Sequence record: MW679410.1
DNA length: 64,000 bases
From: Escherichia phage C6
Direction: 5' to 3' (one strand)
Shown here: in pieces, positions 1-48,218 of the stretch
Layout: every line of letters begins with the position of its first letter
Position numbering within the stretch: position 1 is the first letter of the stretch
Made by a program: the position numbers and the translations under genes
The notes under the pieces: model-generated
Seen by the model: the letters and a program-made list of their open reading frames with translations, nothing else
What the model was told of the DNA's origin: nothing
Database searches by the model: none

Positions 1-786
1 ACTTAATGATGGTGAAATATTGAAGTCATTAGGAACCTGTGAACGTTCTAGTGCCAGGACACAAGTTTCTTCATACACACCAGCCAATTTAATAGCTTCA
101 GGCAAAGCCTCGAACTTCTCACGAGAAGTCATGACTTCAGAACCTTCCTTCATATAAAAGGTATATGCAGGGCGTCCGGCCAATGCCACAGCTTCATGGA
201 TAGAGTCATGGTCTAGGGTATAAATGGTGTCATTAAAGAACGATGATTTGTTTACATCTAATTTAGGATGAGAATAGCTCAACGTTTCTTTTTGACGTTG
301 CAGCATAATTTCCTGGAGTTCTTCATTCAGGGTGATACCTTTATTACGAAGGTATTTGATGTGGGACATAGTTTTCAGGAAGAACGGATTATTCTTCAGG
401 AAACGATGAGAGGTTTTGATAGCCAGACAGATATCAGGCGTAGCCCAATAGAAACCTGTAAGACGGTCCTTTTTAATATGATTTTCAGCATATTTCAGGA
501 GACGATAACTTGAGGTGAAATCTTCGTCTTGGAGCTCACCAGTGATTTCACGTACGTTAGTCAGAGCACGAACGATATATGCTTCAAAATAGGTTTCTTT
601 ACCGTTGTACATGCATTTAAAAGCCTGGACATCAGGGTTATCCACAGGAACATGGGCGCCGAACATCCGAGCTTTAAAGTGATTCCATGAGCCTTGGTCG
701 GCAATGAAATCCCAATCAGAATTTTCGATATACTTATTTTCAATCAGACCAGCGTGGTGCAGTGCACGAGAACCAATAACTAGCAT
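1..786 (-). CDS. hypothetical protein, partial (ATG at 786-784, reading frame open to window edge; 3' end outside window)
   Basis: Own reverse-complement translation MMLVIGSRALHHAGLIENKY... runs in frame to position 1 with no stop; absent from ORF track, which appears to list only stop-terminated ORFs. Confidence 0.5.
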   Translation of the reverse strand, partial: MLVIGSRALHHAGLIENKYIENSDWDFIADQGSWNHFKARMFGAHVPVDNPDVQAFKCMYNGKETYFEAYIVRALTNVREITGELQDEDFTSSYRLLKYAENHIKKDRLTGFYWATPDICLAIKTSHRFLKNNPFFLKTMSHIKYLRNKGITLNEELQEIMLQRQKETLSYSHPKLDVNKSSFFNDTIYTLDHDSIHEAVALAGRPAYTFYMKEGSEVMTSREKFEALPEAIKLAGVYEETCVLALERSQVPNDFNISPSLS

Positions 787-5297: not shown

Positions 5298-5334
5298 AAC
5301 TTTGTGAAATTATTTTTAGTCTAAACCCCCAAAA

Positions 5335-5350
5335 AGGAGACCGAAGTCTC
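5335..5350 (-). terminator. GC hairpin GGAGACUUCGGUCUCC + U5 on minus strand
   Basis: Inverted repeat followed by TTTTT immediately downstream of stop of gene 5357..5974. Confidence 0.55.
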
Positions 5351-5356
5351 CTTTCA

Positions 5357-5974
5357 TTATTTACGGGTCTTTTCGAACTGAGCGGCGTCACCAGCAAGGC
5401 GGCGTGCTTGACGAAGTTTGTTGTCGATTTCTTCGTGCATAGGCTGGGTATACTTAAGGCCTTCAACCGTCAGATAGAGACGATAAAGGTCTGGGGTATC
5501 CAGGTTGTTAATGTGCTGTCCGTTACGAAGAGCATTGAACTCTCGAACGAGTTGTTTAGTTTCAGATTCGATTTCCGAAACCAAAGAAGCCAGTTGATTA
5601 TATTTTTTAACTATAGTGCTGGTGTCAAACTTGATTTTAGGTTTAGGAGCTTCTTTTACCGGTTCGGCTTTAGGCGTTGGTTTCGGCGCTGCAACTTTGG
5701 TCTGGGCCACAGGTTTAGCAACAGGAGCTTTAGCTGGTTTAGCAGGCTTAGTAGCGCCGCCAGCTACGATATCTTTAAAAGCTTTGGAAGCTTTGTAATA
5801 TTCTTTCTGGTTACTAGTATCAAAACCATACATATCATAAACGTTTTTAAAGAACTCAGTACTAGTTTTAGCCCCAGAAATTTTATCATAAGCGGCTTGC
5901 CACATATCTTTAGTCATGCGCACGCCGGCTTCAGTCAGAATGTTTTCGTTCAAAAATTCATTGTAAGTTTTCAT
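5357..5974 (-). CDS. capsid internal protein, IPIII-like, with N-terminal capsid targeting sequence MKTYNEFLNE and Ala/Pro/Lys-rich low-complexity linker
   Basis: N-terminus matches the T4 internal-protein targeting sequence MKTYQEFIAE as recalled; position between tRNA cluster and early genes. Confidence 0.7.
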   Translation of the reverse strand: MKTYNEFLNENILTEAGVRMTKDMWQAAYDKISGAKTSTEFFKNVYDMYGFDTSNQKEYYKASKAFKDIVAGGATKPAKPAKAPVAKPVAQTKVAAPKPTPKAEPVKEAPKPKIKFDTSTIVKKYNQLASLVSEIESETKQLVREFNALRNGQHINNLDTPDLYRLYLTVEGLKYTQPMHEEIDNKLRQARRLAGDAAQFEKTRK

Positions 5975-6002
5975 TATTGTTTCCTGTGTTAATTAACTTA
6001 TC

Positions 6003-6010
6003 TATTTATA
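6003..6010 (-). promoter_or_regulatory. late promoter TATAAATA for IPIII-like gene
   Basis: Exact TATAAATA on minus strand about 29 nt upstream of ATG 5974. Confidence 0.5.
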
Positions 6011-6017
6011 CAAAAAA

Positions 6018-6039
6018 GGCCCAACCTTTCGGAAGGGCC
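6018..6039 (-). terminator. GC-rich hairpin followed by U6 on minus strand, downstream of tRNA cluster
   Basis: GGCCCAACCTTTCGGAAGGGCC with flanking A/T runs; near-identical copy at 48161-48188. Confidence 0.5.
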
Positions 6040-6217
6040 TTTAACCTAGGGTAACCTTGTCGGGGTTCCACCTGCTAGGCAAGTGTTCAAAAATAAGGTG
6101 CGCCGTTTCAGCTGTGAGATAAGGGACTTTAAGAGGAACTCATGTACGCCTTAAAGTCGGGTCTTATTCAGGGAACTTCAGTCCGACGACTTACCGGTAG
6201 CGACCCGGTTTCTTGTT

Positions 6218-6293
6218 TGGCCGAGACAGTAGGGATCGAACCTACGACCCAGGACTTAGAAGGTCCTTGCTCTTCCTTCTGAGCTATGCCTCG
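6218..6293 (-). tRNA. tRNA-Arg (anticodon TCT)
   Basis: Hand-folded cloverleaf: 7-bp acceptor stem, GCTC/GAGC D-stem, anticodon loop CTTCTAA, T-loop GGTTCGATCC, encoded CCA. Confidence 0.8.
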
Positions 6294-6297
6294 TATT

Positions 6298-6372
6298 TGG
6301 CGGACATGCATGGATTCGAACCATGGACCAATTGATTAACAGTCAACTGCTCTGCCACTGAGCTACACATCC
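6298..6372 (-). tRNA. tRNA-Asn (anticodon GTT)
   Basis: Anticodon loop CTGTTAA, T-loop GGTTCGAATCC, acceptor stem pairs with G-U wobbles, encoded CCA. Confidence 0.75.
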
Positions 6373-6376
6373 AAAT

Positions 6377-6450
6377 TGGTGGCCCTGGGTGGAATCGAAC
6401 CACCATCCAGCGATTATGAGTCGCTCGCTTGACCGTCCAGCTACAGGGCC
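6377..6450 (-). tRNA. tRNA with CAT anticodon (Met or lysidine-type Ile2)
   Basis: Perfect 7-bp acceptor stem GGCCCTG/CAGGGCC, anticodon loop CTCATAA, T-loop GGTTCGATTCC; anticodon arm resembles E. coli tRNA-Ile2 as recalled. Confidence 0.75.
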
Positions 6451-6455
6451 TTAAT

Positions 6456-6722
6456 TTAAATTACAAATCCAGCAGGAGCATTATCATCTTTAGCCATGTG
6501 CTGAATTGTATGATAAGTCATTTCTTCAGGAGCAACCAGATAAGCCGCAGCGTTAACTAGTGGAATTATTTTTGGTTTAGCGAATGTGCTATCGGCAATT
6601 GTCATAAAGGGCTCGCCGTCGGTCTCAACTTCGCCAAATTGACATTCATATGAAATAGAACAACGTTTGGTAGTTGTTGTCTTGGTTTCCGGGTCATAAA
6701 AAGCTAATTTTAATACTAACAT
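6456..6722 (-). CDS. hypothetical protein (88 aa)
   Basis: ORF track trimmed to ATG at 6722 with SD GAGGTG. Confidence 0.5.
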   Translation of the reverse strand: MLVLKLAFYDPETKTTTTKRCSISYECQFGEVETDGEPFMTIADSTFAKPKIIPLVNAAAYLVAPEEMTYHTIQHMAKDDNAPAGFVI

Positions 6723-48158: not shown

Positions 48159-48165
48159 ACAAAAA

Positions 48166-48188
48166 GGGCCCAACCTTTCGGAAGGGCC
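48166..48188 (-). terminator. GC hairpin followed by U5 on minus strand (near-identical to 6018-6039)
   Basis: Read directly. Confidence 0.5.
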
Positions 48189-48218
48189 AATAACCATAAA
48201 ATGGCTATACACACTAGA

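Follow-up and report, generated by a model that had tools for sequence, protein, structure and literature searches.

An ortholog of T4 rnaD and a conserved operon trailer follow the tRNA genes of Escherichia phage C6

Introduction

Three tRNA genes of Escherichia phage C6 (MW679410.1) are followed by 178 nt (6217-6040) that lead up to a terminator hairpin. This raises the question as to whether the stretch is empty or holds a gene of its own and, if so, what kind of product that gene would make. The original prediction described it as about 180 nt of non-coding sequence and, with reference to the small stable RNAs encoded next to the T4 tRNA cluster, proposed that it may be a small RNA. rnaD ("species 2 RNA") is a small structured RNA that has been known in phage T4 since the 1970s. 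Here we analyse the stretch within its window, the whole 64,000 nt of phage DNA under study, by gene prediction, RNA family searches and comparison with related phages. Feature coordinates are collected in Table 1.

Results

Three tRNAs precede the stretch

ARAGORN and the Rfam tRNA model (RF00005) agree on exactly three tRNAs, head to tail on the minus strand, with RF00005 scores of 62-70 bits (E 3e-13 to 4e-11), 4-nt spacers between the genes and a CCA end encoded in each. These are the Arg-TCT, Asn-GTT and CAT tRNAs that the original prediction had named. The CAT tRNA is most likely a lysidine-type tRNA-Ile2 reading AUA, rather than an elongator tRNA-Met. Its acceptor stem GGCCCUG and anticodon loop are common to T4 tRNA-Ile, its homolog in the phage AlbertHofmann record is labelled "tRNA-Ile, codon ATA", and its best E. 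coli matches, at 80.5% over the full length, are annotated as tRNA-Ile. tRNA-Asn is indeed absent from the T4 annotation, as had been stated. The further idea that its presence signals a different codon-supplement strategy does not hold, because sets with tRNA-Asn are common in T-even relatives: the gene is carried by JS98, IME08, ESCO47, Sf25, Ec_MI-02, Moon and others, and Met(CAT)/Asn/Arg or Met/Tyr/Asn/Arg are frequent combinations. The tRNA-Asn gene is the preferred homing site of SegB, and T4 has segB at that position (PMC2330249). The protein genes that flank the T4 cluster, e.6 and trna.2, are matched by neither flanking ORF of the window; the 90-aa ORF upstream differs from T4 trna.2 and the 205-aa ORF downstream from T4 e.6.

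Table 1. Features in and around the tRNA operon (window coordinates).
Feature	Position	Strand	Basis
tRNA with CAT anticodon, likely tRNA-Ile2	6377..6450	-	ARAGORN; Rfam 62.6 bits
tRNA-Asn (GTT)	6298..6372	-	ARAGORN; Rfam 70.1 bits
tRNA-Arg (TCT; codon AGA) with encoded CCA; final tRNA of the cluster	6218..6293	-	ARAGORN; Rfam 62.4 bits
rnaD (T4 "species 2 RNA") ortholog, 120 nt	6097..6216	-	blastn and covariance model
P1, predicted 5-bp hairpin with 7-nt loop (ACCGG-GUCGCUA-CCGGU) near the rnaD 5' end	6193..6209	-	RNAalifold
P2, predicted 5' strand GUCGUCG; partner is 6098-6105 at the RNA 3' end	6184..6190	-	folds and alignment
Core, 5' side: internal loop GACUGA, P3 (AGUU), CCC bulge, base of P4	6162..6183	-	alignment
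Variable apical hairpin, type C module	6125..6161	-	comparison of relatives
Core, 3' side: CUUAUCUCACAGCU and internal loop GAAA	6106..6124	-	alignment and RNAalifold
P2, predicted 3' strand CGGCGCAC, leaving a 3' overhang of about 1 nt	6098..6105	-	folds and alignment
AU-rich 8-nt insertion TTATTTTT between rnaD and trailer	6089..6096	-	junction comparison
Operon trailer: hairpin CACUUGC/GCAGGUG, invariant GGAACCCCGACAAGG, short optional hairpin	6040..6088	-	comparison
Intrinsic terminator of the tRNA/rnaD operon: GGCCC...GGGCC and U6	6012..6039	-	folds
T4-type late promoter TATAAATA, serving the ORF that lies downstream (5974-5357)	6003..6010	-	sequence read

The stretch matches no curated RNA family

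The minus-strand ORFs in 6217-6040 are only 21-47 aa long and overlap the tRNAs or the terminator. ARAGORN found no tRNA or tmRNA in 6217-6040, and no model of the Rfam tRNA clan (CL00001) matched 6040-6217 even at E<=10. Rfam scans were run at the gathering threshold over the full window and at E<=10 over 5950-6500, and the T4 rnaC/rnaD region was scanned too. Across the whole 64 kb nothing except the three tRNAs reached the gathering score of any family in Rfam 15, the best sub-threshold match in the stretch being BjrC68 on the terminator (20.7 bits against a cut-off of 39), and no family covered either rnaC or rnaD in the scan of the T4 region. As these scans returned tRNAs only, there is no curated family for the rnaD RNA. 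The description of a stretch with no convincing ORF or tRNA fold is therefore upheld, its length being 178 nt, and the tRNA and covariance-model search that had been proposed for 6000-6460 bears out the three tRNAs and adds nothing else at gathering score. When 207 nt were searched by blastn (E<=10) against 5,426 E. coli genomes, nothing matched, which argues against a host origin or a long antisense to the host. Within the 64-kb window we found no complementarity of at least 13 nt to the stretch, a second copy of the terminator aside, and 11-12-mers occurred at chance level only.

The first 120 nt correspond to T4 rnaD

Comparison with related phages shows the stretch and its terminator to consist of two conserved modules, which at the sequence level are an rnaD ortholog (6216-6097) and then a trailer with terminator (6088-6012). 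Aligned by blastn with T4 rnaD (NC_000866), the first module shows 94% identity in the 52 nt at its 5' end and 89% in the 27 nt at its 3' end; the centre is unrelated. A covariance model (R1), trained on 25 homologs with the T4 and C6 sequences among them, gives 6097-6216 a score of 125.3 bits (E about 1e-29), and switching its filters off brings up no second copy in the window. Since the C6 sequence sits in the training alignment of R1, it is blastn that provides the independent evidence. In the annotated T4 genome, tRNA-Arg is immediately followed by rnaD and rnaC. T4 rnaD (71171-71053) begins 1 nt past the CCA of tRNA-Arg(TCT), and the C6 ortholog begins at the same distance from its tRNA-Arg CCA, in the same slot and on the same strand, with a length of 120 nt compared with 119 nt in T4. 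A segment of phage EcWhh-1 is 100% identical to the C6 sequence, and the homologous segment in the RB3 record is annotated "rnaD". On the strength of these alignments we are highly confident that 6216-6097 is an ortholog of T4 rnaD, which makes it an ordinary feature of T4-like phages and not a new kind of element. The earlier guess of a T4-like small stable RNA is thus vindicated by homology to rnaD, although this accounts for only 120 of the 178 nt. It is from T4 alone that a stable RNA of this family is known: RNAC and RNAD appear there among the late RNAs, and an RNAC probe was used in a Northern blot (PMC9697503). Reviews give the function of rnaD as unknown (PMC3014915).

Homologs of rnaD are present in 732 phage records, of which one, RB3, bears the rnaD annotation. 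Tequatro-, Mosig-, Dhaka-, Gapriver-, Moon-, Kanagawa- and Marfavirus all have members that carry the RNA, in every case within a tRNA array, and distant copies are found in phages of Citrobacter, Klebsiella, Enterobacter and Kosakonia. The neighbouring genes vary: the tRNA immediately preceding rnaD may be tRNA-His, tRNA-Asn or tRNA-Arg, and in Merlin tRNA-Asp comes next, while in Mosigvirus and in phage ESCO10 an ORF separates it from the tRNA. Phage Sf25 has lost rnaD and retained the tRNAs, rnaC and the trailer. Homolog lengths are 115, 116, 118, 119, 120 and 122 nt. A pattern scan of metagenomes gave 38 loci, 11 of which the covariance model accepts as true homologs, the others being chance matches. 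Columns 9-39 of rnaD (31 nt) are invariant across all close sequences, compared with only 25 of 77 columns across eight phages in the adjacent tRNA-Arg, whose allele here is far from that of T4.

Covariation supports a hairpin and an irregular rod with an exchangeable tip

Folding energy is not a strong guide to structure in this stretch. For the single sequence it is weakly unusual over 208 nt (z = -2.35), and the 120-nt rnaD part on its own does not fold significantly better than shuffles (z = -1.06), so that the case for more than chance rests on comparative analysis. In the consensus fold predicted by RNAalifold, a long irregular rod comes after a small hairpin (P1) at the 5' end. P2 pairs the rnaD 3' end back to nt 27-33, and the base of the rod is formed by a sequence-invariant internal-loop core, GACUGA/GAAA and GUUCCCUG/CACAGC. 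The 5' side of this core varies little or not at all among 35 distinct close sequences; GUUCCCUG is retained by all distant homologs, and CACAGC by distant homologs as well. In Moonvirus, Marfavirus and Kanagawavirus the sequence of P1 is altered and the hairpin kept, and these homologs still have AAGUCGUC, GUUCCCUG, CACAGC and GGCGC. The apical slot, on the other hand, is occupied by at least three unrelated modules (A/B, C and D) in close relatives and by a short fifth form in distant genera, each of which folds as a hairpin. T4 and C6 illustrate this well, as their predicted P1/P2/P3/P4 architecture is the same and their central ~40 nt are unrelated hairpin modules, of T4 type there and type C here.

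Base-pair changes fit this arrangement. With distant genera included, four of the five P1 pairs change on both sides (AU/GC/UA, CG/GC, GC/AU and GC/UA), and the inner G-C pair of P2 becomes C-G in the Moonvirus and Kanagawavirus homologs. Pair 40:110 also covaries (UA vs AU), and such covariation among close relatives could be partly linkage, the sequences being related and recombining. In the alignment of these 35 close sequences, paired cells make up 95%, and sliding the partners by 1-3 columns leaves at most 48%; the covariation score is 0.229, compared with at most 0.086 when slid and with none of 500 shuffles reaching it. Adding the distant homologs gives 94.4% paired cells (at most 48.8% slid), a score of 0.336 (at most 0.082 slid) and changes on both sides in 17 of the 30 predicted pairs; all percentages of paired cells are inflated, because the alignments behind them had been fitted to the structure of the model itself. 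Comparative analysis thus shows a predicted rnaD fold made up of P1 and an irregular rod with P2, an invariant core and an exchangeable tip. Inspected by eye, the consensus of the internal loop fits none of the motifs considered for it (kink-turn, sarcin-ricin motif, T-loop or anticodon-loop mimic).

A trailer and terminator follow in place of rnaC

rnaC (species 1 RNA, 139 nt) is the companion small stable RNA of rnaD in the T4 operon. Unlike rnaD, it resembles a tRNA at the 3' end, with a T-arm-like GGGUUCGAAUCCC and a weak match to tRNA-Sec (17.5 bits). Whereas rnaC follows rnaD in T4, blastn finds no rnaC in the window, and rnaD is followed by the operon trailer after an 8-nt insertion. 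rnaC is also missing from 11 of 38 other loci examined and from about 30 phage records; where present it is 97-100% identical and behaves as a present/absent cassette. Going by these alignments, what C6 lacks relative to the usual order of rnaD, rnaC and trailer is rnaC, as a clean, precise cassette. The insertion TTATTTTT is unique to this phage among 50,697 phage records: every full-length match to the junction is 63/71, meaning that the 8 nt are missing from each.

The trailer is 83% identical in blastn to the T4 sequence 3' of rnaC and is conserved behind rnaD and behind rnaC alike. Its hairpin has one covarying pair (11:18, GC vs AU), and between this hairpin and the terminator lies a 15-nt invariant stretch that is predicted to be mostly unpaired. 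In the terminator, GGCCC at 6039-6035 pairs with GGGCC at 6022-6018, followed by U6 at 6017-6012, which places the hairpin exactly where it had been predicted (6018-6039). Pair 55:74 covaries (CG vs GC), and several phage records label the homologous hairpin "terminator". A simple terminator scan missed it because the 12-nt inner segment is above the loop limit of the scan. The late promoter motif just beyond is kept at the same place in most relatives, and in the fPS-90 record the corresponding position is labelled "predicted late promoter".

Discussion

What could such an RNA do, and how would it be made? The best explanation overall, and in our judgement a probable one, is that the stretch is an rnaD ortholog plus trailer, with rnaD excised from the tRNA transcript, perhaps to act in trans as a protein-binding RNA. 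rnaD would be co-transcribed with the three tRNAs and would lack a promoter of its own. By analogy, host tRNA-processing nucleases would cut endonucleolytically just 3' of the tRNA-Arg CCA, a second cut would fall in the single-stranded spacer past P2, and 3' exonucleases would afterwards trim back to P2. The spacer reads UUAUUUUUGAA in the window and GAAUUA in T4, and in Citrobacter phage Merlin its place is taken by a tRNA with its RNase P site. We propose that rnaD would be stable because both of its ends are within or beside helices. Work on T4 tRNA precursors in the 1980s is reported to have implicated RNase E and RNase P in processing the precursors of species 1 and 2. Excision from the tRNA transcript appears, by this analogy, somewhat favoured as the route of biogenesis; alternatively, the mature RNA could run on as far as the terminator and be about 205 nt long.

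Several other readings deserve consideration. The stretch might be a cis-acting 3' external transcribed spacer that matures or protects the upstream tRNAs, by offering cleavage sites and barring the way to 3' exonucleases, the excised piece being a stable by-product without function in trans. This would suit the position of rnaD, usually 0-1 nt past the tRNA 3' end (T4, the window, Moon, Q7622 and Marfa), and its place in a tRNA transcription unit that ends at the operon terminator. It would also suit the dispensability of the locus: deletions of the whole region are reportedly viable in T4, as reviewed by Miller et al. in 2003, and the SegB paper calls the tRNA region non-essential (PMC2330249). 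Against it, rnaD is retained where ORFs intervene, as in Mosigvirus and ESCO10, and Sf25 keeps its tRNAs, rnaC and trailer without it. Moreover, a 31-nt invariant run together with core motifs shared across genera, where only P1 covaries, is excess constraint for a spacer, and we regard this reading as unlikely. Even less likely is that one module or both act as a base-pairing regulatory RNA, the trailer (6088-6012) above all, which would serve as an Hfq-type 3'-derived sRNA or sponge with GGAACCCCGACAAGG as its seed. The covarying hairpin, the mostly unpaired invariant 15 nt, the Rho-independent terminator with its U-tail and conservation irrespective of whether rnaD or rnaC lies upstream are all in line with it. 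There is also a precedent in E. coli: 3'ETS-leuZ, the 3' external transcribed spacer of a tRNA operon there, is reported to be functional (described by Lalaouna and colleagues in 2015). It is not itself a tRNA and comes from the 3' part of the operon's transcript, ending at the terminator, as an RNA from the stretch would; it has no sequence similarity to the stretch, and the analogy suits the trailer more than rnaD. On the other side are the lack of a target of at least 13 nt in the window and of a blast-detectable E. coli match, although seeds of 6-10 nt pairing with host RNAs may fall below the reach of such searches. A stable trailer RNA is not reported in the accessible T4 literature, and conservation of the trailer may merely reflect the terminator and the overlapping late promoter.

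A pseudo-tRNA or other tRNA-like remnant of cluster decay would be at home in a tRNA array. P1 (5 bp, 7-nt loop) and the 7-bp P2 are sized like a T-arm and an acceptor stem, and T4 rnaC does carry a T-arm-like element. Yet the P1 loop GUCGCUA is no T-loop, the connectivity of P1 and P2 is unlike the top half of a tRNA, and the 3' end has no conserved CCA (CACC, CACA, CAUC, CAAA and CAUU occur). With ARAGORN and the Rfam tRNA-clan models blank in 6097-6216 at E<=10, we rejected a tRNA or pseudo-tRNA, which we consider scarcely credible. Nor do we think it more than very improbable that the constraint acts on a small protein or on the DNA itself, as a recombination anchor or homing-endonuclease target. 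Many GenBank records do place "hypothetical protein" CDSs over rnaD, the swapped modules are flanked by invariant blocks, and recombination and homing by SegB concentrate in this region (PMC2330249). Against this, the ORFs reach 21-47 aa at most and none is conserved; homolog lengths of 115-122 nt, not multiples of three, and the wholesale swapping of central modules destroy any reading frame, and a small ORF was rejected on these grounds. Double compensatory changes, seen in 17 of 30 pairs, are the mark of constraint on an RNA, and the RNA is produced in T4 (PMC9697503).

Returning to rnaD as a trans-acting, protein-binding RNA, we speculate that it would be non-essential and autonomous, in line with the ORF between it and the tRNA in Mosigvirus and ESCO10 and with its loss from Sf25, its invariant core serving as a platform for a host or phage protein and its swappable tip tuning or diversifying binding. 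This putative binding mode is put forward tentatively. Large structured non-coding RNAs adjoining phage tRNA arrays, GOLLD and ROOL, have reportedly been described by Weinberg et al. in 2009 and 2017; they are about five times larger than rnaD and belong to unrelated Rfam families. A single convergent SNP in rnaD was found in all T4-like BW1 lines adapted to the host ECOR34 (PMC12685909). It is a hint of a host-specific role for rnaD, although the paper describes its position within rnaD too ambiguously for it to be located on our predicted structure. A bolder reading, which we consider a long shot, is that the rnaD family is a modular host-interaction or counter-defence RNA whose P2/P3 core would dock on a host or phage protein while the tip selects the host factor or variant, the trailer being separately a 3'ETS-type sRNA. 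Apical modules of rnaD, of which there are at least four unrelated ones, would, in that modular scheme, circulate by recombination. If it were true, rnaD would contribute to host range, and the ECOR34 SNP would be its first phenotype (PMC12685909).

For annotation the outcome is simpler. The gap behind the tRNA genes is an rnaD gene plus the operon terminator, and "hypothetical protein" calls over its homologs should be removed. Few phage non-coding RNAs have been known for as long as rnaD and rnaC, which are still without an Rfam family or an assigned function. The comparison gives a covariation-supported fold, an invariant internal-loop core with a swappable tip, and a range across seven phage genera. 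The covariance model, although it does not in itself reveal function, can be used to annotate rnaD in hundreds of genomes.

A homolog of T4 rnaD follows the tRNAs

The stretch between tRNA-Arg and the terminator hairpin (6217-6040, 178 nt) contains no credible ORF and no tRNA detectable by ARAGORN, and the position originally predicted for the hairpin, 6018-6039, is exact (GGCCC 6039-6035/GGGCC 6022-6018, then U6 6017-6012). An Rfam scan of 6217-6040 returned zero matches even at E<=10, and folding energies are unconvincing alone (z = -2.35 over 208 nt, -1.06 over the inner 120 nt), so that the case for an RNA gene depends on comparative evidence from other phages. In the T4 reference (NC_000866), two "small, stable RNAs" are annotated directly 3' of tRNA-Arg: rnaD (species 2 RNA, 119 nt) and, 6 nt further on, rnaC (species 1 RNA, 139 nt). 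By blastn, the first 52-55 nt of T4 rnaD align with 6216-6163 at 94% and its last 27 nt with 6123-6097 at 89%, with unrelated centres, and 6088-6008 matches the T4 sequence from the 3' side of rnaC to the terminator at 83%; for T4 rnaC itself, blastn finds no match in the window. The 178 nt thus resolve into a one-nucleotide spacer, rnaD, the 8-nt TTATTTTT and a conserved operon trailer with its terminator (Table). The suggestion of a T4-like small RNA beside the tRNA cluster was therefore correct: 6216-6097 occupies the same place after tRNA-Arg, and sequence, position, size and fold all assign it to the T4 rnaD family. It differs from the T4 arrangement in its apical module, in the absence of rnaC and in the 8-nt insertion, seen here only. 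The segment is not tRNA-like, and Rfam holds no family for it or for T4 rnaC or rnaD. This rnaD is newly recognised and unannotated, of a kind already known and no surprise to a T4 specialist.

Table. Features of the tRNA operon and predicted helices of rnaD
Feature	Position	Strand	Basis or remark
tRNA with CAT anticodon	6450-6377	-	ARAGORN and Rfam tRNA model
tRNA-Asn-GTT	6372-6298	-	ARAGORN and Rfam tRNA model
tRNA-Arg-TCT	6293-6218	-	ARAGORN and Rfam tRNA model
Spacer A	6217	-	one nt, tRNA-Arg to rnaD
rnaD	6216-6097	-	blastn vs T4
8-nt TTATTTTT	6096-6089	-	between rnaD 3' end and trailer
Operon trailer and terminator	6088-6012	-	blastn vs T4
T4-type late promoter TATAAATA	6010-6003	-	upstream of next ORF, start 5974
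P1	rnaD 8-12/20-24		7-nt loop; RNAalifold
P2	rnaD 27-33		partner is the 3' end; RNAalifold
Internal loop GACUGA/GAAA	rnaD		RNAalifold
P3 and P4	rnaD		RNAalifold
P5	rnaD		variable tip; RNAalifold

Immediately past the stop codon of the ORF 5974-5357 (205 aa) lies a palindromic hairpin (AAAGGAGACCGAAGTCTCCTTT, 5333-5354), a possible terminator for that gene; the terminator scan flagged it on the plus strand only.

The rnaD fold is conserved across genera

An alignment of 25 rnaD homologs shows three zones. The 5' block has no variation in columns 9-39, the 3' block (UCACAGCWGAAACGGCGC) is almost invariant, and the central ~45 nt are exchanged among unrelated hairpin modules (types A/B, C and D), with type C shared by the window, JS98, VR25 and AlbertHofmann. 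In the neighbouring tRNA-Arg only 25 of 77 columns are invariant (eight of the aligned phages). RNAalifold predicts five helices (Table), and a covariance model of rnaD detects a single copy in the window, whether its filters are at default or off. Across 35 distinct sequences, paired cells amount to 95%, versus at most 48% with partners slid; this alignment, like all those used for pair counts here, was fitted to the structure of the model itself. The covariation score of 0.229 (versus at most 0.086) was reached by none of 500 shuffles; close rnaD sequences recombine, and part of their covariation could be linkage.

With filters off, the model retrieved additional rnaD homologs beyond the reach of blast with the window: in Moonvirus (Citrobacter phages Moon, Merlin and NM4.3), Marfavirus (Klebsiella phages Marfa, F48 and VAC36) and Kanagawavirus (Enterobacter phage Q7622 and Kosakonia phage 305). 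Their P1 sequence differs while the hairpin is retained, with four of the five pairs compensated, the inner P2 pair changes from G-C to C-G, and AAGUCGUC, GUUCCCUG, CACAGC and GGCGC are kept. In this broader alignment both sides change in 17 of 30 pairs, 94.4% of cells pair versus at most 48.8% when slid, and all measures exceed all 500 shuffles. Of these sequence comparisons, the most independent evidence for the predicted fold comes from pairs compensated between genera in P1 and P2. The fold of rnaD is conserved and its sequence is under stronger constraint than that of the adjacent tRNA.

The Marfavirus homologs (loci L070, L069 and L072, 436-574) carry a ~48-nt insertion in hairpin P1, within which lies AGCCCAGAUGGAUG, a sequence shared with the 5' end of the homolog in Kosakonia phage 305. 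In Moon (KM236240, locus L066 1769-3391) the tRNAs are annotated on the strand opposite to the ARAGORN calls, and an unannotated tRNA-His (2033-2108) is directly followed by the rnaD-like RNA.

rnaD is widespread and rnaC is an optional cassette

The rnaD segment alone matches 732 of 50,697 phage records, being 100% identical in EcWhh-1 and labelled 'rnaD' in the RB3 record; T4 rnaC matches 740. Across 39 loci examined in detail, rnaD is found in 38, and rnaC is present in 27 and absent from 12. Shigella phage Sf25 represents a natural loss, in which the last 20 nt of rnaD remain (L021 734-753) 3' of an inserted ORF and the tRNAs, rnaC and trailer are intact. The gap at rnaC-less junctions is precise, GGCGCACC being joined to GAACACTTGCC, versus GGCGCACC-GAATTA-TCGATT...GTACAAACACTTGCC when rnaC is present. 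This rnaC-less junction is common to ~30 records, none with the window's extra 8 nt, which are missing from every matching record among the 50,697 genomes, closest relatives included.

The rnaC gene behaves as a precise present/absent cassette of ~145 nt (slot between window 6097 and 6088; L001 1909-2047 and homologs), and an ORF fills the slot in Yersinia phage P8 and the metagenome locus L063. Across Tequatro-, Mosig- and Dhakavirus, rnaC keeps 97-100% identity wherever found, against only 76-97% for the adjacent rnaD, a pattern suggestive of either horizontal spread or very tight constraint. Many phage records carry 'hypothetical protein' CDSs over rnaD/rnaC (e.g. VR7ORF148c, the end of RB69ORF150c, NM4.3 509-604 and Marfa 460-693), which are likely spurious calls on an RNA gene.

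The trailer follows the last element, be that rnaD or rnaC. Across 22 distinct trailer sequences, four elements can be distinguished: a hairpin of 6-7 bp (CACUUGC/GCAGGUG) shows a single G-C to A-U covariation, GGAACCCCGACAAGG is invariant, a further short hairpin is optional, and in the terminator GGCCC/GGGCC alternates with GCCCC/GGGGC. A second copy of the terminator hairpin (TTGGCCCTTCCGAAAGGTTGGGCCCTTTTT, 92% over 37 nt) lies after another gene at 48159-48195 on the minus strand, and related phages have a further copy ~600 nt beyond the terminator of the tRNA operon; it looks like a reused module.

The tRNA trio and probable codon supplementation

ARAGORN and the Rfam tRNA model concur on the three predicted minus-strand tRNAs, with 4-nt spacers between them and a CCA end encoded in each; at the Rfam gathering score, nothing else matches across the 64 kb. 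The same Arg/Asn/Met(CAT) trio is found in Dhakavirus phages JS98, JS10, IME08, dhaeg and CLB_P2, where the region is 95-98% identical, which places the window in a T4-type phage of the JS98 group. The CAT tRNA is most likely tRNA-Ile2, judging from a GGCCCUG acceptor stem and CUCAUAA anticodon loop in common with T4 tRNA-Ile, the annotation of its homolog in AlbertHofmann (curated, BASEL collection) as an ATA-reading tRNA-Ile, top full-length E. coli genome matches that carry tRNA-Ile annotation, and C4-G69 and C5-G68, reportedly TilS determinants (Ikeuchi et al. 2005). A rough tally of window ORFs of at least 120 aa puts AGA at 17.8% of Arg codons and ATA at 17.4% of Ile codons; E. coli uses both codons rarely, so the usual codon-supplement reasoning applies. 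T4 annotation bears out that T4 lacks tRNA-Asn, but the different supplement strategy read into this does not hold: T2L, RB1 and RB3 have a Met-Tyr-Asn-Arg set, with the preferred SegB homing site within the tRNA-Asn gene (PMC2330249), making possession of tRNA-Asn the common state.

Biogenesis and possible function

Sequence comparison identifies the window rnaD as the ortholog of an RNA that accumulates during T4 infection (PMC9697503). Within tRNA arrays, rnaD starts 0-1 nt after tRNA-Arg, tRNA-His or tRNA-Asn, and in Merlin it ends 6 nt upstream of tRNA-Asp. Because the upstream ORF ends 5 nt before the tRNAs and a promoter scan of that interval gave no convincing sigma-70-type site, we infer that rnaD lacks its own promoter and would be co-transcribed with the tRNAs. 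Excision by host tRNA-processing endonucleases and 3' exonucleases, with trimming to P2, would account for its predicted 1-nt 3' overhang and predicted stability. In T4 (GAAUUA) and in the window (UUAUUUUUGAA), P2 is followed by an AU-rich, single-stranded spacer; in the window, the 8-nt insertion yields the spacer and a U-run directly 3' of P2. The trailer has a loose functional analogue in the leuZ 3'ETS of E. coli, and phage GOLLD/ROOL RNAs, also beside tRNA arrays, are likewise loose functional analogues, homology being implied in neither case.

Since an ORF separates the tRNA from rnaD in Mosigviruses and ESCO10, and the neighbours of rnaD survive its loss in Sf25, genome organisation argues that rnaD is autonomous and not a cis accessory of one tRNA. 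Reviews give the function of RNAC and RNAD as unknown (PMC3014915). The sole phenotype-like datum we found for rnaD is a single convergent SNP in all ECOR34-adapted lines of a T4-like phage (PMC12685909). A search for long antisense pairing against E. coli and within the window found none; short-seed pairing is possible. Speculatively, the invariant internal-loop core could serve as a protein-binding platform, with the exchangeable tip modulating specificity. For an RNA known for 50 years, covariation now supports a structural model in which the invariant core is defined and the modular tip documented.
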